Source: a virus
Taxonomy: Duplodnaviria > Caudoviricetes
Strand: one strand, 5' to 3'
IMG/VR virus record: IMGVR_UViG_3300021400_001615
Coordinates: 1 to 64,000 of that record
DNA length: 64,000 nt
Notes under the pieces: generated by a model
What the model saw: the letters and a program-made list of their open reading frames with translations, nothing else
What the model was told of the DNA's origin: nothing
Databases searched by the model: none
Made by a program: the position numbers and the translations under genes
Shown here: one piece after another, positions 1 through 58,291 of the stretch
Numbering within the stretch: the first letter of the stretch is position 1
Layout: the number at the start of each line of letters is the position of its first letter

Positions 1-1679
1 TCCCACACTTCGTTTAATAATTTTTCCAACTCATCTTTGGTAAATTCAATTTTGCCATTACTGTTTGTTGTAAATACTTTAATCATATTCCTCATACCTC
101 CTCAAAATATTCCAAAAATTCCGGCTTATAATCTTCAAGTAACTGCTCAAAAATATAAGTCAGAGGTTGGCTCCAAACAACATTATCAGCTTCATATGGT
201 GCATCGTCCCATAATCTCCTGATAACAAACTCCGTAAATTTAATTGGATCTTTTACTTTACAAATGGGATTCTCGCCATCAAAATTTGTCGGAGCTTCAT
301 CGAATAGCTTTACCAGGTCATCAACATCTATTCTTGCCACCAGCTGTAACGAATGATGTTGTTGCGAACCACGACTGTCTTCTCGTTCTATTGTGAATTT
401 ACAAATGCCGTTCTCGTTATAGCTCATTTTTTCTCCTATCAACTAATTTTACATAGTACTCTCTATCAAAAACATCACCATTAGATATTTGTATTTTTAT
501 ACTATTACCATTGATAACAGCTTCCGCAATTTCGCGCCTTAACCATTCGGGACGTATAGAATCAACCACTATTTCATTTTCTATTTCAATCATATCCTAA
601 CCTTCACAATCAAATCTAATTTTCAATGTCCTTGACATCGACAAACTTATCAAAATATGACTTATAAAAATTGTCCATATGTTTACCACATATTTCGTCT
701 GCCATTAATTCTATCAATTCAAATGTTCCACGTTTATTAGTAAACGTCTCTAATGGAAATCTATGAATAATTCCATTAATAATAATACTATATAACTCTT
801 CTATAATATTCATATATCCAGATACATCTTACATTTCTTACATTGCTTCCATCTGCTTTTATTTTATATCATCAGTAGCATGGCAAAAAATATAGACCGC
901 CAATAGAAGCGTGTAATCCTCTTGTGTGAACTCTTTTTTGTTAACATCAAAATTTAATATAGCTTCAGCCATTCTTTTCTTCATTTGACACTGTCTCTCT
1001 ATTTCAAACATTTCTACCATATCTTTACCTGATTGGCTAACAAAACTCATAACTTGCCCTCAAACTTTCTTTAAACAAAAACGGCAATATATCATGTTGT
1101 ATGTATTCATCGATTGTTTTCATGTTTAGATTACTATAGGTTTCATCTCGTCCTAATTTTAAAACAAAAGAAGTATGGTACGGATCAGAAGCATTAACAT
1201 TTTCATAGAATTTTTCAAGTGCGTCCTCAGATGGGTTTATTATACAAAAGCCAGAACGTTTCTTATATAGATACCATTGTACATATATTAAATTGTTAAA
1301 CATGTTCCACCACCAATTAAAGACTTGTTTTATCTAATACAATATAATAATGATATATAGGCATCATGTACTTTGGTGATTTGCTTCCATCATTTAATTG
1401 AAAATCAAACCAGTGTTTTCCCCAACTCCAATATTCATTAACTGATTCAACATTAAAAATCCCTACTGGAGTATTACCATTTTTAGTTATCATAATTTTC
1501 TTCATTAAAACCTTGCTTTGTTTCGTCATAATAATTAACCATATTGTTTCTTATCGGCGTATCATATGCTTCGAAACAATTATGAACCTCTCTCGCATCT
1601 ACTTCGCAGTCCCATTTACGGCAGTGGTCGTAATACCATTCATAATACTTACAATCATCACAGTTCATTCTAATTACCC

Positions 1680-11612: not shown

Positions 11613-12101
11613 TCAGTTCGTCCATTCGTCATAATTAGCATTAGGATAAACCTTATGAAAGCACTCTTCACAATAAGGACTTTCCCATCCCCTGGTGGTC
11701 ATTTTTCCGGGTTTACCACAGCGAATACATGTTTCCTCGGAAAGATCTGTGTACTTGTCTAACCATTTATTATACTTATCAGAGATACTTCTGGGAATGC
11801 CATTATCATACCATCTTAACTGACCAAATTTTTCTTTAATCTGGATAACACGGTAATCATTAAGAAAGTCACCGAGGATCTCTCTCAACTCTTCACACAT
11901 CTGAAGACCAAAGGCTTTGCGCCATCCAAGTGGAAGATCGTCAAGATTTGTAAACTCATAATCATAATCCTCCAGTGGTTCTTGAGACCATTCATATCTG
12001 GGAATAAGAAACGGATATCTTTCACAGAGTTGTTTATTTCTTGCTTTTACATCTGGATCATCAGACCCAAGCCATGCTGCTCTAAATTCATCGTATGTCA
12101 T
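11613..12101 (-). CDS. hypothetical phage protein with C-terminal Zn ribbon
   Basis: QIKEKFGQLRWY and CIRCG...YCEEC motifs. Confidence 0.7.
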   Translation of the reverse strand: MTYDEFRAAWLGSDDPDVKARNKQLCERYPFLIPRYEWSQEPLEDYDYEFTNLDDLPLGWRKAFGLQMCEELREILGDFLNDYRVIQIKEKFGQLRWYDNGIPRSISDKYNKWLDKYTDLSEETCIRCGKPGKMTTRGWESPYCEECFHKVYPNANYDEWTN

Positions 12102-28948: not shown

Positions 28949-29020
28949 GGCTTCCGATAGGACTTGAACCTACAACAAATTGATTACAGATCAATTGCAC
29001 TACCATTGTGCTACGGAAGC
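28949..29020 (-). tRNA. tRNA-Thr(TGT), atypical C33
   Basis: Cloverleaf GCTTCCG/CGGAAGC; anticodon arm ATTGA-TCTGTAA-TCAAT; T loop TTCAAGT. Confidence 0.8.
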
Positions 29021-29116
29021 GGATGGCGGTTTATACGAACTCCGCCAAACGTATGTCACAATTACAAATAAGACTTATTATGAAGGAGAATTAGATGAAA
29101 ACTTAATTCATCTAAA

Positions 29117-29190
29117 CAGGGCTAACCGGGCATGATCCGATATCGAGAGAGTCAAAGTCTCTTGTGCTAGCCAATTACACCATAGCCCTA
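29117..29190 (-). tRNA. tRNA-Gln(TTG), aberrant T loop
   Basis: Anticodon arm AGAGA-CTTTGAC-TCTCT; T arm ATCGG-ATCATGC-CCGGT. Confidence 0.75.
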
Positions 29191-29199
29191 TAAATATTC

Positions 29200-29272
29200 A
29201 CGGGAGCAGAAGGATTCGAACCTTCGTTTTCTGGTTGATGGTTACCAGACTGTTGCCATTTGACATACTCTA
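29200..29272 (-). tRNA. degenerate tRNA-like element, identity uncertain
   Basis: T arm GAAGG-TTCGAAT-CCTTC intact; anticodon arm TCTGGT-AACCATCA-ACCAGA non-canonical. Confidence 0.5.
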
Positions 29273-29321
29273 ACAAGCGCATCACTCTTGTACCCTTTGT
29301 CTACGCTTACACTCCCAAAAA

Positions 29322-29444
29322 TCGGAACGACACGATTCGAACGTGCAACCACCCCGGCTTTCCCATTAAGCTATGGAATCTATTTAATTCCAGTCGGATT
29401 CGAACCGACAACTAGGGCTGTTTTCCCATTTAAACTACGTTCCG
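29322..29444 (-). ncRNA. fused double tRNA-like RNA (two D/T elbows, no anticodon loop)
   Basis: Two D arms and two TTCGAAT T arms; outer acceptor CGGAACG/CGTTCCG; inner TGGAATT/GATTCCA; shared GCCCT/GGGGT stem. Confidence 0.75.
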
Positions 29445-29607
29445 ATGACTGGCGGCAGTCTTGGCCTTCAACCGCACTTTAATGCTCATTAACAAACCAG
29501 TCTTTTTTTACAAGCTACCGCAGAAGCCGCCTCGCATTTGCTCCTGACTTTAATTAAAGATACAGCCCAAAGGTCTTATGTACCCGTAGCGGCTATTTCA
29601 CTTGTAA

Positions 29608-29752
29608 TTATGTGGGTAAGGATTTGCACCTTACAATTATTTTCTTGGACTGCGTTGCCCCTCTGCTACTATTTCATCTCTCGCCTATTTCACTTGCAGA
29701 TGCCAAGACTATTTAAAGGACGTATTGCGTCTACCTATTCCGCCACCACATA
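29608..29752 (-). ncRNA. tRNA-like RNA (Leu-type D arm) with a ~90-nt structured insert replacing the anticodon arm
   Basis: Acceptor TATGTGG/CCACATA, TGGCGGAATAGGTAGACGC and T arm GTAAGG-TGCAAAT-CCTTAC. Confidence 0.6.
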
Positions 29753-29805
29753 ACGTAGTCTTTCCAACTGTCAGACAACTTCCCCATTCTTGCTAAAGAA
29801 TGGAA

Positions 29806-29875
29806 TATCCGCAGGACGATTCGAACATCCCCCTCCCGTGCCAACGGGCGTTGCGTACCTCTACACCATACGGAT
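29806..29875 (-). tRNA. degenerate tRNA-like element with a shortened anticodon loop
   Basis: Acceptor ATCCGTA/TGCGGAT, T loop TTCGAAT and CCCGT-TGGC-ACGGG arm. Confidence 0.5.
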
Positions 29876-29940
29876 AACCGTTACACATGTGTCTTCACCA
29901 TTTCGTATAAGCCTGCGCAGAACTATACTACTTTGGCTAA

Positions 29941-30015
29941 TCGGGAATACTGGACTTGAACCAGTGACCGCCTCGTTATGAGCGAGATGCTCTAGACCAA
30001 CTGAGCTAATTCCCG
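29941..30015 (-). tRNA. tRNA-Met/Ile2 (CAT)
   Basis: Canonical cloverleaf, loop CTCATAA. Confidence 0.9.
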
Positions 30016-30169
30016 TTGGGCGAGTTAAAGTCCTCGCAACTGCGCATCCTACATGGTTGGCCTGACTTTCTCAATTTGATTTCTGTAAACCGTGTACTTA
30101 AGTTCACCTACTTTACAAATTATCTGGTACTCATCACTGGGCTTGTAGTATTTGCTAATCAGCCCCGCA

Positions 30170-30251
30170 TGCATCAGAAGGGAGTCGAACCCTTAATCCT
30201 TACGGCACATGGGCTTAAACCATGTGTGTATACCAATTCCACCACTGATGC
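30170..30251 (-). tRNA. tRNA-Leu(TAA)
   Basis: Cloverleaf with variable arm; CATGG-TTTAAGC-CCATG. Confidence 0.9.
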
Positions 30252-30553
30252 AAAATTTGCTGCCTATCACAGCTATGCAATCGCATAGGTTGAATTTCAC
30301 TTATATAATATATTATTTAATTTACCAAATTAAAATTGGGACATAAAACCGAACCTCTGCCCCGTGGTGTAAATACCAAGGTTTTTCTGGCGACTTGTAA
30401 TTTTATTTACTTGTTCATCATAGAAATGCCGTAAAACATTAAAACATTAGCAAATAACAAAATAAATAACCATCAATAACAAAATTCAGAAACAATGAAC
30501 AATAAAACCTGTAATACCTTATATATTTGACCAAGTCAACCAGCGGAAAGCAA

Positions 30554-31311: not shown

Positions 31312-32286
31312 TTAATTATTTTTTTCATCCATTGATAACAGATCGTTTACATTAACAATACTTGAACCACCCGAAATAGTGGGTAATCTCCCATCCCATT
31401 TATCAATTTTCTCTTTCTCTATTAATTCCGGTGTCAATGATTCTGCGATCTTTTTATTGGCTTCGGCCTCAGCTTCAGCTTGAATACGAAGAGCCTCTGC
31501 ATCTGCTTCCGCTCTGATTTTCTTTGCTTCTGCATCCGCTTCTGCCTGGATCTTTTTCTGTTTTGCCTCAGCTTCGACTTGCTTAGTTACCTGTTGATTG
31601 GCATATTCGGAGGTCTCGGCAGCAAGTTTAGTCTGTGCTTTCTTCTCGATTGCTTCATTATACGCATCTGAGAAATTAATATTACCAATGGTTACAGATA
31701 CAATATTAACAATCTGATTTCCGTATTTAGTATTCAAAGAATTCTGGATCGCATCCTTAACGGCTCCCTCAATTTTCGCTCTGTCAGTCACATCAATGTC
31801 ATTAAATAGCTTAGTTGCCGCCTTAACCCCAGATTCTACAGATGTTTGCTTTACCAGATTGGCATCCCATTCCTCTACATTCTGCCAGATCCATGCAGCA
31901 TACTCAGCATTAATCTGATAGTCAACAACCACATTCTCGCAATAGACTTCGGTTCGCTCAGATGTCTCAGACCATATCTGTAAGTTGCCAAAATCCTTTT
32001 CAAGCTGTTTGCAGTTGACATTATATATTTTTTCCATAATAGGTAGATGCCAGTTAAGACCATTCTTAGTACTCTTATCAGCAATCTGACCACAGTATGT
32101 TCTGATCCCGACATAGCCGGTCGGCACGAACGAAAATGAGCAGGAAAACAACGCCACTACAACGCCAACCAACGTTAGAATTAACCACCACAATTTTTCC
32201 GTTTGAAAAATCATAGCAGCACTAATGGCAATGATTGCCAAACCACCAATAAGAAACAAAACATTAACTAATCCCATAAATATCAT
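31312..32286 (-). CDS. SPFH / prohibitin (band 7) family membrane protein
   Basis: Two N-terminal TM helices, VPTGYVGI, AEAEA coiled coil and KWDGRLP. Confidence 0.9.
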   Translation of the reverse strand: MIFMGLVNVLFLIGGLAIIAISAAMIFQTEKLWWLILTLVGVVVALFSCSFSFVPTGYVGIRTYCGQIADKSTKNGLNWHLPIMEKIYNVNCKQLEKDFGNLQIWSETSERTEVYCENVVVDYQINAEYAAWIWQNVEEWDANLVKQTSVESGVKAATKLFNDIDVTDRAKIEGAVKDAIQNSLNTKYGNQIVNIVSVTIGNINFSDAYNEAIEKKAQTKLAAETSEYANQQVTKQVEAEAKQKKIQAEADAEAKKIRAEADAEALRIQAEAEAEANKKIAESLTPELIEKEKIDKWDGRLPTISGGSSIVNVNDLLSMDEKNN

Positions 32287-32304
32287 TCCTTTCTCTACTA
32301 TTAA

Positions 32305-33243
32305 TTAAGCAACTGCTTCTCGTTTAATAACAGCAAACATATCACGCACATCATCCATTATTGGATGCATCTGATCTTCAGTACAAAGTGATGACATGCC
32401 AAATTTTCCGTTTGTCAAATCTACAAACATGCTGCAAGTTCCCTCATCACCCATAAAAAACTGATCCCACTCTTCTGGTGAAAGAATTCGCTTTACATCT
32501 AGCTGATCAATAGCCAGGTTATCAAATGACACTGCCTTAAAGTGATTGGGCAAGGTATCCAGCACATCATACAAGTATCTCTGACGAGCCTTTACAGTAA
32601 GGTTTTCGCTGTTTTTGTAATCAATACCACGACCTTTGTCCTTGTATCCAAGAATAAGGATCTTTAAGTCATTATCCCTCAATGCTTCAATATCAGACGG
32701 TCGCAGAATTCCGTTGATAGTATGGATAACAGCATTCGGATATTTCTTTACCTTGCTAATAAACTCTGATGTCGGATTTCTCAACGAGATGCCTAATCCT
32801 TTAATTAATTCCCTATTAACCAGATCGGTAATCACATCTTCCTTGCGTTCAAAATGGATCTGGTTTACGGTCATGTTGGCAAAGATTTTGCGCCTCTTCA
32901 ATTTCTCAAGGAAAGGAATCAGCTGCGGGTGGAGCAGTGAATTTCCATTGATAGCAATTTCCGTGTACGGATGCAGTGAATCTATGAATTTGACATTTGA
33001 CAAATCTGCTTCTGGACCATCTGGTGTTGCGTTATCATAACAATATTTGCAGCCACCATCACACCGTTTACCAATGGAAATATCAATGTTCTCCGGAAAT
33101 TCCAGATCGAACTCATCATCCATTGTCATTCGTTCTTTTGTGCCATCATTAGAATCAATAATAACTACAGAATTTCCGTTCTTATATACATATTTAGGCA
33201 TCTCGTTATCCTTTCTTTTTAGCCATCGTATCCATACTGACAC
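32305..33243 (-). CDS. radical SAM protein
   Basis: CDGGCKYC (CX3CX2C); likely start MPKYVY. Confidence 0.9.
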   Translation of the reverse strand: MSVWIRWLKRKDNEMPKYVYKNGNSVVIIDSNDGTKERMTMDDEFDLEFPENIDISIGKRCDGGCKYCYDNATPDGPEADLSNVKFIDSLHPYTEIAINGNSLLHPQLIPFLEKLKRRKIFANMTVNQIHFERKEDVITDLVNRELIKGLGISLRNPTSEFISKVKKYPNAVIHTINGILRPSDIEALRDNDLKILILGYKDKGRGIDYKNSENLTVKARQRYLYDVLDTLPNHFKAVSFDNLAIDQLDVKRILSPEEWDQFFMGDEGTCSMFVDLTNGKFGMSSLCTEDQMHPIMDDVRDMFAVIKREAVA

Positions 33244-33626
33244 ATCACCACAATATTTTCACCACTGGGAGTGGTATAATAATTATCATCCATCTCAAGA
33301 TCGCTGTCCTTAAACCAATCATATTTAATGAAATCATACATTTCTTTTATAAATGCTTCTTCGGGATCGTCTTCGTCATTATAATTTTCATCAGGTTCAT
33401 ATCCCTTGAGTTTATAGAAGTGAAGAACTTCTTCTTTTGTATATAGCTGACCCTGTTTAGGTTTTTCGCTTTCGGGGAAATCTTTGAATGCATCATACCA
33501 TCCGGTTTTATAATAGTACAGATTTTCATTTTCCCATTTCTCGGCCTGTTCCTCAGTCATAATCACAATATTGTGAGTGGTGCTTGAGTTAGTTTCCCAC
33601 ACATTACGTCTAATTACTCTTCTCAT
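33219..33626 (-). CDS. 'WETNSS' motif protein 1
   Basis: N-terminus RRVIRRNVWETNSSTTHNIVI. Confidence 0.8.
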   Translation of the reverse strand: MRRVIRRNVWETNSSTTHNIVIMTEEQAEKWENENLYYYKTGWYDAFKDFPESEKPKQGQLYTKEEVLHFYKLKGYEPDENYNDEDDPEEAFIKEMYDFIKYDWFKDSDLEMDDNYYTTPSGENIVVMCQYGYDG

Positions 33627-33637
33627 ACTTATCTCCT

Positions 33638-34087
33638 TTAATCATGGCTCATGTTTATGCCAGCGTATTTGTTAAAAATAAAATTGATAATACTATCATC
33701 GTCATAACAAGAACAGAATTTCGGCTCATACTCTGGAATAACCTGATGGTTAAGACTTGGCTCTACTTTCTTCATGATCCGAATTCCCTTTGCTCCAGTA
33801 TATGCGCAGAGACATTCTTCCAAACATTGATACTGATAAAAATCGCTTAGATCCACATCCCAATGATTTAAATAATATAACTCGGTTAACAGATATGATA
33901 GCTTTACTCTTTGATCGAAGGTTTCTATTCCAACATTATAGTCGCCAAAATCTCCGAAATCAGTAACAATGTAACCATCTTTATCAATTGGCAGATAGCT
34001 CTTTTCCAAACCTTCCTTAGCAATTACTAGCGAATGGACAGCGGAACTATTCGTTTCCCAAATATTACTTCTAATTACTCTTTTCAT
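33638..34087 (-). CDS. 'WETNSS' motif protein 2
   Basis: N-terminus KRVIRSNIWETNSSAVHSLVI. Confidence 0.8.
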   Translation of the reverse strand: MKRVIRSNIWETNSSAVHSLVIAKEGLEKSYLPIDKDGYIVTDFGDFGDYNVGIETFDQRVKLSYLLTELYYLNHWDVDLSDFYQYQCLEECLCAYTGAKGIRIMKKVEPSLNHQVIPEYEPKFCSCYDDDSIINFIFNKYAGINMSHD

Positions 34088-34111
34088 TCTTATTTACCTT
34101 CCTTTCGCATT

Positions 34112-34906
34112 TCAAGATGGTCTTTTAACATTCCATTTATATGCATAATCCTCAAATGGACATTTTCCAATATATTCTATAAATTTAATTATATCTTCTT
34201 TGGCTCCTATTCGAATTGCATATCCAGTATCATCCATTTTTTCTTTATTCATTTTTTGCAATACAGCATTAAAATGTTTTAATTGTGGTAAAATAATATC
34301 TTCTAATTCTTTTTTATTAAAACCATTTGTATATAGCATCAGTCTTTGACTATTACAGTTTTTGTAATTTATTAAAGACCCATCACCCAAATACCAAACC
34401 TTACACATTAATGGTGTTAATTTTAAATCCGTTGGTATATGTTTTATTCCATCAAAATACCATTTATTATATTCTACTGTGAAAGTAGGAGAAGCAATAC
34501 TATTATATTCATATACTTCATAGAATTTATCAGTTCTTTTATCGTATCTTTTTCTATATTTAATATATTCATTAGAAGCATAATTTATAAAATGTTTACA
34601 AACATAATCAACATGCTGAAATGATTTTGACGAATATGAAAAATTAGCATTTACTGCTGGTTTTCTCATATAACCATCGCCCAATAATGCTCCTCTTAAT
34701 ACTTCATACATCTCATCCGTCATCTATATATATGTTTTTGATGTTATATGCCATCCTTGTTGTCTCGGAGAGATTTGATATTCTTTCATCTTCATAGAAA
34801 TCAATTCTTGAGAACATCCTAGTATTTCACCACATTCACGCTATGAATATCCACGATTAATATACAAATCAATAAGTGTTTCTTTTTCAATTTCAATTTT
34901 TCTCAT
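34112..34906 (-). CDS. free-standing HTH + LAGLIDADG homing endonuclease with two in-frame TAGs (34841-34843, 34724-34726)
   Basis: GALLGDGY and VWYLGDGS motifs; upstream in-frame HTH-like segment with RBS and ATG at 34906. Confidence 0.8.
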
Positions 34907-34932
34907 TTTTTCCTCCTTTTATATTCTAATAA

Positions 34933-35664
34933 TTAATTATATTCTTCGATGATAAAATCTGTGTTAATAATGCCAGATGCTTTATATTTTTCCCAATCGC
35001 ATATTTCATCACCGTCAACAACAATAATGTATTTTTTATCAACGAGGAAATCCTTCAGTGTAATTCCCTTATCCTTAATAAAGTTTTTCAACATTCCGGC
35101 ACTCTGGTGATCAATGGTACCGATGTTCGGCATTTCCATATATTCTTCTTCATTGAAAATTGCCGGATGTTCTTTACCATTTTTATCTATATAACAATAT
35201 TCCGCTCTATTATTTTTTCTATCCCAACCACTATAGATCAGATCCTTATGCATAATATCATTTCCATCCTGGTCAAGATAAAGGTCTTCTTCTTTTGTAT
35301 CAATATCAAATCCTTTAAACCCAGGTATCATTTCATAAGCTATGGATTCGAATTCCTTATACCACTTATCCCACTCCGGATCGTCTTCATATAAATAGCC
35401 AAGATATTCACACATGGCATATTTAAGTTTATCTTCGAATGACATTAGTAATCTAAATGGATATCTGCCATAACCCTCATAGATATCACACAACCTCAGC
35501 TTCCCTTTGTTGCTCAAATATACGCAATCCATTCTGTCGCAATCATCATTTGTATTCCAAACCAGCTTATCTGGATCTACTTTCCGTTTATCCTTAGTAA
35601 CAACTATCGAATGAGCAGAACTCGAATTACTTTCCCAGATACCATTTCTAACAACATATTTCAT
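34933..35664 (-). CDS. 'WESNSS' motif protein 3
   Basis: N-terminus KYVVRNGIWESNSSSAHSIVV; IDHQS near the C-terminus. Confidence 0.8.
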   Translation of the reverse strand: MKYVVRNGIWESNSSSAHSIVVTKDKRKVDPDKLVWNTNDDCDRMDCVYLSNKGKLRLCDIYEGYGRYPFRLLMSFEDKLKYAMCEYLGYLYEDDPEWDKWYKEFESIAYEMIPGFKGFDIDTKEEDLYLDQDGNDIMHKDLIYSGWDRKNNRAEYCYIDKNGKEHPAIFNEEEYMEMPNIGTIDHQSAGMLKNFIKDKGITLKDFLVDKKYIIVVDGDEICDWEKYKASGIINTDFIIEEYN

Positions 35665-56107: not shown

Positions 56108-58291
56108 TCACCCCCTTTTTTCCCTCATCACAAACTGGATGAAGTCTTCGACCTGCCCTGTCTGCCGGAGAAACTTTGCGGCATAATCCGCAATCATATT
56201 CTCAATCTCGGAAAGATTTAATCCCGCCCACGGGTCTTCTGGTTCCTCATTGTAGAAGAGAATAATCTCTTCTACATAGTCATCCGGCTCCGGCATGACA
56301 ACTTCCTCTTCCGGACGCAGGTTTTTTCCGGCACGGCGGTTCTTCCGGGTGTACGCCTTAGCGCCTTTGCTATACTCACGGAACCCGGTATCATGCACGT
56401 TGCCGTGCTTATCGATGAAATCAAAGGAATACTCAGCCTTCTCCTGCATCCGTCTCTTTGCACGTCGAGTCGCCTTGCGGCGGTCTGCACGGTTGCCTGA
56501 TCGCCGAGTTCCTCTGTATTCCAGTTCATCCGCCGGATCCTCAAACATTTCTCCAACCGTCTTGATTTTAAACATAGTTTTCCTCCTGTTTAATTATTTT
56601 CTTCGATGATAGTATCGTTGTCGATGACATAGTATTCGATCCATTCTATATCATCATAACTGCCCGGCACGTACAGTGCATATGTACACACTATTTCTCC
56701 GGGATTGATAAACTCCGGATAGTGAATATAATCATACTCACTATCTGTGTTTATAATTTGCCCATTCCCATCAGCATCCAAGCACACGCCTATGATGCGC
56801 TCGGCAATTCGGGCGTTGCCAACAAGTTGCGCCATTGTAAGATCATCGGTATCTACAAAGGTGATACCGTCAATTCCACAGCGTTCGGCAAAGTCCTCCT
56901 CCAGTTCAAGACCGGAGGAATAATCTTCGTACCAGTCACCGGATAACTCAGCTGCCGGGATCGGCGACACGAAACAAAGTGCCGCCATTGCTACCGCTCC
57001 GGTGAGAACGGTAGCGGCAAAAATCTTGTCGTTACTCTTCATACTCATCCTCCTCCCAGTCTTCGTCTATAGAAAGTAATTCTACATCCTGCCCGAATTT
57101 GGTCCAGACAGTACCGGCATTATACGCCAGACCGTCTTCTGTGAATTCCTGACGGACAATGTACGCATCGCCGCCGGTATTCTCCGCAAGGAAAGCTTCT
57201 GCAATCCTTCTGAGAATATCCTCGTTGTTGGCAATCTCTGTACGACTCACGCCGCAATAATTGCCATCTGACAGGCCCTCCCTGTCATAGGTGCCGCCGG
57301 AAGCATGCTGACGGCGTTGATAAACTCTGAGATATTGCCAGTGCCAGCCTTAAACATGTCAAACGCCATGCCAACTTCGCCGAGAACCTGTACCCGACGA
57401 TGATGGATCCTGGCGTGAGAGTCGGCGATTGCCATGTTTACGGAGTCTGGCAGAATGCCAGCTATCCCGTTGGAAATAGCTTCGATGTTGGCAAGCTCCA
57501 CACGGTTCTTGCCATCAATTTTGCGTGCTTTAGCCGTCTTGATTTGGACGGGCGTTCTTGTCAGGCTCATGATATCCTCCAGTACCCACTATCAGCCGGA
57601 ACTTTCCCGTTGTCCGCCACCCACGACGTGGACGTTGTGGTTTTCGGGTGGCATGGGGGAAGGCTTACGCCTTCTTATTCCCCTTTTTCGCCTTGGGAGC
57701 ATATTTCTCAGCCATGATGGGCGGGACCTGCTGCTTTTTGATAGTTCCGGCGTTGACCATAGCTTCATAGGTCTTCATGAAGACCATCTTGTAGCAGTTA
57801 TTGCCGTTGAAACTAGTCACGCAGGAACCCTCGGTGCGGACGAACTTCTTAACATCACCACGCTCACCGGCGGCATTCAGAATCTCCGGCACAAGGTAGC
57901 TACCGTCAACGTCGAGATTATAGGCGTTGAACCAGTCGATGATTGCATCCTCAGCAGTTTTGCCAGCCTTGCCCTTTGCAAAGTCCGCAAGAGCTTTTTT
58001 TAGGGTCTTGTCAGCTTCGGTCGGCGCATAGGTGGCTTCAGCTTTGATCTGATCCTTGCGCTCTTTGTCGAGCTGGGCAATCCGAGCTTCAAACGTGGTG
58101 CGCATCATGGGAATATTGTCCTCAAGACAGGAACCCCTCAGTTTTTCGAGTGCGGCAATGCCCGTTTCAATCTCTTCCTGCTCAGCCTTGAACTTGAGAT
58201 TGATTTCAGAACGCCACACAAAGCATCTCATAAAGTCAACAACCGCAACCGCAAGTTTCTTGTCACCCTTGAACCAGTCAATCCTCTTCAT
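56108..58291 (-). other. putative early-region hypothetical ORFs (155, 152, 72, 107 and 208 aa)
   Basis: Successive ORFs with RBSs; GC-richer codon usage. Confidence 0.7.

Follow-up and report, generated by a model that had tools for sequence, protein, structure and literature searches.

The DNA analyzed here, which we refer to as the window, is the first 64 kilobases (kb) of IMG/VR record IMGVR_UViG_3300021400_001615, a viral record of 160,883 base pairs (bp; 161 kb) with direct terminal repeats. The only tRNA cluster of this phage lies at 28949..30252 on the minus strand and holds four canonical tRNA genes (Thr, Gln, Met and Leu) together with at least four non-canonical tRNA-like genes. 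One of the latter, a 123-nucleotide (nt) element at 29322-29444 of the minus strand, which is also the gene strand, is the subject of this report. An earlier note on this DNA had described it as a tRNA in which the anticodon loop is replaced by a circularly permuted second tRNA body, and both the sequence and all of the segment boundaries given there were found to be exact. Read from the 5' end, the element starts with the 7-nt 5' strand of an outer acceptor (RNA positions 1-7; 29438..29444), followed by UA, D arm 1 (29420..29435; a 4-bp stem and an 8-nt loop with GGG), one unpaired base and the 5' strand of a 5-bp stem (29414..29418). The middle part consists of a 4-nt linker resembling a variable loop (29410-29413), T arm 1 (29393..29409; a 5-bp stem and a UUCGAAU loop), an acceptor-like hairpin of 7 bp closed by a 5-nt loop (29374..29392), a second UA (29372-29373) and D arm 2 (29357..29371; a 4-bp stem and a 7-nt loop with GGG). 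After one further unpaired base come the 3' strand of the 5-bp stem (29351..29355), a 4-nt variable loop (29347-29350), T arm 2 (29330..29346; again a 5-bp stem and a UUCGAAU loop) and the 3' strand of the outer acceptor with a discriminator A (29322..29329). The terminal CCA is not encoded.

All 37 of the proposed base pairs, four of them G.U, are standard pairs when read from the sequence. The outer acceptor pairs perfectly, with 7 of 7 Watson-Crick pairs to 29323-29329, and the inner acceptor-like hairpin is likewise fully paired (7/7, one G.U). The strands GCCCT and GGGGT do form the single shared stem at the "anticodon" position that had been proposed (5/5, two G.U), and every arm is intact, the D arms at 4/4 each and the T arms at 5/5 each, with one G.U in T arm 2. 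Both strands of the shared stem have a D arm before them and a variable linker and T arm after them, and each half carries the nucleotides that form the tRNA elbow: U8, A14, A15 with U48, a D-loop GG and the UUCGAAU T loop. The acceptor stem, D arm and T arm of a tRNA, with their elbow nucleotides, are thus present twice. An anticodon loop is absent, the whole gap between the two strands of the shared stem being occupied by 58 nt, and the inner half has the permuted topology. The element is therefore predicted to be a pseudo-two-fold molecule that has two tRNA elbows but lacks an anticodon, and in which a body of the tRNA-Pro type is joined to a circularly permuted second body.

Standard tools did not recognize this arrangement. 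ARAGORN called neither a tRNA nor a tmRNA on the element, and the Rfam tRNA model (RF00005) made no call, scoring 22.5 bits over part of it. On the plus strand, no open reading frame (ORF) of at least 80 amino acids (aa) overlaps the element, and a covariance model built from the element as a single sequence scores 13 bits there. The proposed fold has an energy of -36.0 kcal/mol, 1.6 kcal/mol above the minimum free energy (MFE) of -37.6. When the same bracket string was imposed on 2000 shuffled sequences, the mean was +37.7 kcal/mol and the best value -1.9. The plain MFE z-score is only -1.8, and modest values of this kind are usual for tRNA-like folds that rely on tertiary contacts.

The covariance search that the earlier note had called for returned one full-length homologue, L241:11288-11404, in a viral record of 74,316 bp (87.8 bits, E 1.8e-18). 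At a nucleotide identity of about 69%, this homologue keeps all seven helices (7/7) and the elbow nucleotides of both halves, and its proposed fold is at most 0.6 kcal/mol from the MFE. Compensatory double substitutions have altered both D arms and both T arms, each G.U pair of the shared stem is G-C instead, and the inner hairpin has 4 bp and a 3-nt loop, compared with 7 bp in the element. The phage itself appears to be unrelated to that of the element, because its record has no match to the DNA polymerase of the latter, and because, beyond the RNA genes, nothing in its 14.7-kb locus resembles the window, in protein or otherwise. In L049:4616-4732, a third and more distant relative (56 bits), the two elbows are retained and the shared stem is not.

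In the set of these three sequences, 97.1% of the cells are paired and double changes are seen in 19 of the 37 pairs; these values were not reached in any of 500 shuffles, and slid alignments gave 28-45% paired cells and 0-2 double changes. RNAalifold, supplied with no structure, returned the identical 37 pairs from this set. By arm, the stem of D arm 1 covaries with L241 and L049, and covarying pairs number 3/5 in T arm 1, 5/7 in the inner hairpin and 3/4 in D arm 2. In a larger set of eight elements from six viral records, 97.4% of the cells are paired and 32 of the 37 pairs have double changes; it counts against these figures that the alignments were fitted to the model and so lean toward the structure, although the margin in the three-sequence set is large, and that the eight-element set was itself picked by the covariance model. 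Since the L241 homologue keeps the seven helices with compensatory changes, chance or decay would be a poor account of the element, which is very probably a real, selected, structured and non-coding RNA that mimics tRNA. The earlier view that selection rather than decay is at work has thus gained homologues of the kind it needed.

Other RNAs with the same order of arms were sought by a pattern of two T loops too close together for two whole tRNAs, followed by the covariance model. Five such look-alikes of 117-131 nt were found in four other large viral records: three in L023, one in L018 and one in L027 that recurs unchanged in L063. The three in L023 (5536-5660, 6037-6160 and 6441-6571) are interspersed among seven canonical tRNAs of a 324-kb provirus record, and their inner hairpins, like that of L049, have 7 bp. 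Because the look-alikes were selected by the model, they suggest that the architecture is viable and repeatedly used, and are not proof of common descent.

Most of what the searches returned was of a different kind. Pairs of T loops 38-62 nt apart belonged for the most part to closely spaced tandem tRNAs, partial duplications or coding DNA, and only a handful fit the architecture. A T-loop/D-loop/T-loop pattern had five matches in viral contigs, namely L049, a mini tRNA-like gene in L121 and three that are put down to chance. The same pattern occurred 118 times in 596 Gb of genomes, against about 70 expected by chance on our own estimate; both T stems were present in only 10 of these, and tandem permuted modules in four. 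Matches to a 14-mer of the 5' end of the element were mostly due to chance, yet they led to L241. The T arm 2/acceptor pattern found only L241 and one ordinary tRNA among viral contigs, and ordinary tRNAs plus L261 and L263 among metagenomes. A D-arm-to-T-arm pattern added nothing new, an exact 21-mer of the junction between T arm 1 and the inner acceptor was absent from viral contigs, the 197-aa protein encoded upstream led to no close relatives, and blastn of the tRNA cluster against GenBank phages gave matches to tRNA-Leu only. The collections were scanned with fixed patterns, so that the number of members given here is a minimum. Rfam 15 has no family in which a normal and a permuted tRNA body are fused and share one stem, and in the published literature that we searched there is no description of such a compact fusion.

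The ancestry of the outer body can be traced. A metagenome contig carries a bona fide tRNA-Pro(UGG) (L259:157-233) whose acceptor is identical to that of the element, C1:G72 and A73 included, and T arm 2 of the element with its variable loop and the 3' acceptor strand is about 87% identical to the same tRNA. On that contig tRNA-Pro(UGG) is followed by tRNA-Gln; the element likewise lies upstream of tRNA-Gln, with one gene between. From these identities the outer body is judged to be derived from tRNA-Pro. A tRNA-Pro gene is not called by ARAGORN anywhere in the 161-kb record, and the L241 homologue is covered from end to end by the Rfam tRNA model, at 42.5 bits, as a tRNA with an insertion; both observations would suit an intron-bearing tRNA-Pro gene from which the insert is removed to give a decoding tRNA. 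However, neither the element nor L241 has a Pro anticodon or the remnant of a 7-nt loop with U33 beside the insert, and the 58 nt take up the entire space between the stem strands. Over the insert, Rfam at a limit of E = 10 gives YrlA and a partial tRNA only, and no intron family. We rejected the intron reading for the want of an anticodon remnant, and consider it to have next to no probability.

The positional orthologues of the element also bear on the outer body. L263:478-577 has about 75 nt of upstream sequence in common with the L241 element, and L261:542-646 has the same scaffold and type of insert as L263. In both, the Pro-type acceptor, D arm and T arm are retained, and the insert is an unrelated hairpin of about 40 nt. 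In two closer relatives of the phage (L003:5140-5232 and L004:4638-4730), the scaffold is again the same, but its loop has 4-6 nt and the D loop contains an insertion. Among positional orthologues, the Pro-type scaffold is conserved and the cargo is variable. The L241 record has two further genes of this sort, a 74-nt Pro-type gene at 11802-11875, directly before tRNA-Gln, which has a degenerate anticodon arm and is called Cys by ARAGORN, and a tRNA-like gene at 11635-11726 with a 5-bp stem and a 22-nt loop at the anticodon position.

Other tRNA bodies in the cluster show the same trend, in that they also lack a normal anticodon loop. A Leu-type body at 29608-29752 (minus strand) has acceptor, D arm and T arm, and an insert replaces the anticodon region; its counterparts in related phages (L004:3278-3368 and L003:3874-3985) have inserts that differ in length and sequence. 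A Gly-type body at 29806-29875 (minus strand) has a 6-nt loop. Its counterpart at L003:5297-5372 is a true tRNA-Gly(UCC), and the one at L004:4795-4870 has an 8-nt loop; anticodon loops of 8 nt are typical of frameshift-suppressor tRNAs. Directly downstream of the element, at about 29203-29319 (minus strand), is a tRNA-like RNA that is 91% identical to L241:11069-11184, and directly upstream is a 54-nt block (29448-29501, minus strand) that is 93% identical in L241. These identities lead us to suggest that such RNA genes move between otherwise unrelated phages.

Several smaller observations belong beside these genes. In the downstream RNA, the 7-bp acceptor includes two G.U pairs and is separated from the D region by an additional hairpin; the "anticodon" stem has 6 bp and an 8-nt loop, and the T arm is normal. 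The upstream block has no Rfam match, is 86% identical in the 202-kb record G015 and is present at L004:3430-3480. Elsewhere, mini tRNA-like genes without an anticodon arm occur at about 600-680 (plus strand) of L121 and on the minus strand of L092 just downstream of a tRNA; both have an acceptor stem, D arm and T arm, and 8-12 nt join the D arm to the T arm. At L046:8484-8602 and L043:12413-12551, a complete tRNA is followed by a duplicate of its 3' half that starts with the anticodon loop and runs to the 3' end. Away from the cluster, the window has an HDV-like (hepatitis delta virus-like) ribozyme match at 57582-57652 on the minus strand (RF02682, HDV-F-prausnitzii; 46.4 bits, gathering score 44).

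The inner module points to a different relative. Positions 18-91 of the 114 in the Rfam YrlA model (RF02553) match 29347-29422 on the minus strand (33.3 bits, E 5.9e-5), a stretch that covers the permuted tRNA-like domain and the shared stem, and the same partial match is found on L049 and L023. The score is less than half of the gathering score of 69. Model positions 1-17 and 92-114, the Ro60-binding helix, are unmatched in the element, and the motif GNCGAAN0-1G is absent from 29200-29620. TROVE/Ro60 (PF05731) has no match at E <= 1 in the complete 160,883-bp record, a search limited to the phage genome, and none was found in five other records with look-alikes; RtcB (PF01139) is likewise absent from the 160,883-bp record. 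The inner module would thus work like the tRNA-like domain of YrlA, with which it probably shares ancestry, and by the features that define a Y RNA the predicted molecule is not one.

The main rival to the reading that we favor, described below, is built on this likeness. Under it, the element would be a cofactor, similar to Y RNA or b7a-tRNA, of an RNA-surveillance or RNA-repair protein, and would tether or regulate rather than sequester; candidate partners would be a host Ro60/Rsr, a Band-7/SPFH protein, or another protein. The YrlA topology and partial match of the inner module are in keeping with this idea, and a predicted b7a-tRNA can substitute for YrlA, according to the summary in Wang et al. 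(bioRxiv 10.1101/312249). There is also a suggestive neighbor, a Band_7 protein encoded at 31312-32286, which is 1.9 kb upstream of the element and separated from it by one ORF and several tRNA or tRNA-like genes. A Band_7 gene also occurs in the L049 record, at a distance of 4.7 kb from the element there, and in the bacterial contigs L377 and L383 tandem permuted RNAs lie directly upstream of Band_7 genes. The region just upstream of the tRNA cluster (31312-35664, minus strand) has, besides the SPFH/Band_7 gene, a weak radical-SAM match and several small ORFs without assignment.

The tandem RNAs deserve a closer description. Circularly permuted tRNA-like modules in tandem were found in four bacterial contigs, L377 (about 1350-1700), L383 (about 2400-2900), L327 and L373. 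In L377 and L383 they lie between a gene for an RNaseH_like protein (PF04308) and the Band_7 gene, and L383 also has an AAA ATPase. The four loci may be the b7a-tRNA-type loci of the literature. However, the Band_7 protein of the window resembles those linked to the bacterial RNAs in the generic domain only, with no specific similarity. In relatives of the phage the Band_7 gene is about 11 kb from the tRNA-like gene, and it is absent from the record of L023 and from that of L241, which is 92% complete. Together with the lack of TROVE/Ro60 in the phage and in the five look-alike records, of RtcB in the phage, and of the Ro-binding part and its motif in the RNA, these points make the cofactor role unlikely. 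The flanking ORFs and 10 further ORFs of 244-287 aa, a part of all the ORFs, gave no Pfam match to DUF7873; for the few ORFs tested, TAG was translated as Gln.

Turning to how the RNA might be made, we propose that the element is transcribed together with the neighboring tRNAs as a polycistronic RNA, from which it would be released by host RNase P and 3' processing, and that CCA would then be added. TruB- and Dus-type enzymes would be expected to modify it; the tRNA-like domain of YrlA is modified by TruB and DusA (PMC4201824). RNase P cuts the YrlA of M. smegmatis, whose stem has 7 bp and to which CCA is then added, but does not cut that of Salmonella, with a stem of less than 7 bp (PMC4201824). 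By analogy with the former, the 7-bp inner stem of the element might be opened by RNase P to give an RNA in two pieces with two acceptor ends. Such an opening would not be essential, because the stem in L241 has only 4 bp.

Taken further, this step leads to another rival, in which the functional molecule is the two-piece RNA. Once RNase P and 3' trimming had opened the inner loop, each of the two 3' ends would receive CCA, and the two RNAs of about 60 nt would form a heterodimer with two aminoacylatable ends, acting as a substrate of, or a sponge for, enzymes or toxins of the acceptor end. The inner stem of 7 bp followed by an A would allow this, and two-piece, permuted tmRNA genes offer a precedent. 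The 4-bp stem and 3-nt loop of L241 do not fit, given that the Salmonella YrlA is left uncut, and no set of aminoacylation identity elements could be recognized in the inner stem. Prolyl-tRNA synthetase (ProRS) normally needs the anticodon of tRNA-Pro, which is absent here. We therefore regard the doubly charged heterodimer as quite unlikely.

The explanation that we favor overall, though tentatively and without claiming that it will prove right, is that the element is a non-decoding, two-headed tRNA mimic cut from the phage tRNA transcript and a putative decoy. The predicted molecule cannot decode. It would instead be a bivalent, anticodon-independent ligand of proteins that read the elbow or the acceptor end of tRNA, and the general proposition that it acts by binding tRNA-recognizing factors seems reasonably probable. 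The likeliest role would be to act during infection as a competitive decoy or sponge, by which real tRNAs would be protected or replaced. A decoy is favored because anticodon-less tRNA bodies accumulate in the cluster and because phage tRNAs are known to counter tRNA-targeting defenses (PMC10264068, PMC11464382). That the target is specifically a defense system or toxin is possible, and is offered with less assurance than the decoy reading as a whole. Binding to a T-box is unlikely, since the element has no anticodon to pair with a specifier.

A number of observations weigh against the favored reading. The form is rare: two of the RNAs found are clear homologues, another is a distant relative, and the five look-alikes agree in architecture, so that true homologues number only two or three. 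None of seven loci from closer relatives of the phage, identified via the phrog_1366 protein, has the double form, and the covariance model found no match in the whole records of five closer relatives; it would follow that the second head is dispensable or recent. The length of the inner stem is not conserved, being 4 bp in L241, so that any role as a second acceptor end would not be conserved either. No partner gene shared by the window and L241 was found, and neither a promoter nor a terminator is conspicuous next to the element. Finally, nucleases that recognize the anticodon loop probably would not bind the element, and without that loop the decoy idea would fit only those factors that read the elbow or the acceptor end.

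The gap among the close relatives also invites the view that the element is an evolutionary by-product, a pseudo-tRNA that illegitimate recombination within a tRNA array left behind as a recombinant or partial duplicate and that has no function of its own. Partial duplications do occur in phage tRNA arrays, as in L046 and L043, and the cluster has several other aberrant tRNA-like genes. Yet seven helices are held by compensatory changes between phages that share no DNA polymerase and no protein similarity at the locus, all of the elbow-forming nucleotides are retained in both halves, and the boundaries of the insert are exactly those of tRNA domains. The design is also found in four other viral records, with three copies in one of them. 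An element with no function is, on this evidence, very unlikely.

If the two-headed tRNA mimic is real, its significance would extend beyond this phage. Mimicry of tRNA is known for YrlA, tmRNA and viral tRNA-like structures. The element and its neighbors suggest that some phages keep anticodon-less tRNA bodies under selection and swap them between unrelated genomes. Such bodies point to a non-decoding, tRNA-directed activity, which might be counter-defense or RNA surveillance. A broader and more doubtful proposal is that phages of this habitat use tRNA bodies as a modular chassis, with Pro-, Gly- and Leu-type genes stripped of their anticodons and fitted with interchangeable cargo. In the double-elbow element the cargo would be a second tRNA body, giving a bivalent, uncleavable surrogate that neutralizes factors acting on the elbow or the acceptor end (for example, toxins that modify 3' ends), and the molecule would be a living form of the dimeric-tRNA intermediate of Y RNA evolution. 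The element can also be seen as a natural counterpart of the engineered tRNA scaffold used for expression of RNA cargo.

Among known RNAs, those of phage T4 resemble the element in context alone. RNA C and RNA D are small stable RNAs in the T4 tRNA region, of a function that is not known (PMC3014915). Two-piece tmRNA has the same gene order of T arm, acceptor 3' strand, linker and acceptor 5' strand, and the processing of its linker is a precedent for an opened inner stem. The element differs from it in having no message-like reading frame and no pseudoknots, and the G3:U70 pair of alanine identity is in neither of its acceptors. In Rfam, the model tmRNA_permuted gave weak matches, on the L023 look-alikes only.

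The b7a-tRNA, a Band-7-associated tRNA-like RNA predicted by Burroughs and Aravind in 2016, is summarized in bioRxiv 10.1101/312249. The likeness to it lies in a tRNA-like non-coding RNA without a Ro60 partner and, for the element, in the nearby Band_7/SPFH gene (1.9 kb away, and 4.7 kb in L049). The same summary has it resemble a single authentic tRNA next to Band-7 and RtcB, whereas the phage has no RtcB, its Band_7 gene is not adjacent, and the link is absent from the L241 record. The tandem RNAs of the bacterial contigs differ in another way, with two permuted modules in a longer RNA instead of a compact, 123-nt, head-to-head fusion.

The closest comparison is with YrlA (Y RNA-like A; Chen et al. 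2014, PMC4201824). Here, too, a circularly permuted domain, made up of a T arm, a loop-closed acceptor-like stem and a D arm, sits on a stem at the position of the anticodon stem, with elbow contacts of the A15:U48 type. YrlA is, moreover, often encoded beside tRNAs and in phages. The two differ at the 5' and 3' ends, where YrlA has the Ro60-binding helix and the element has a second tRNA body of normal topology, as well as in the missing GNCGAAN0-1G motif, the lack of a Ro60 gene in the phage and the sub-threshold Rfam score. In the model of Sim and Wolin, as quoted in Wang et al. (2018, bioRxiv 10.1101/312249), YrlA arose from a dimeric tRNA transcript. Going by that quotation, the element has the very topology that a dimeric-tRNA origin of bacterial Y RNAs implies for the intermediate, with the leftover arms still intact, and the model could therefore be tested on a natural molecule.

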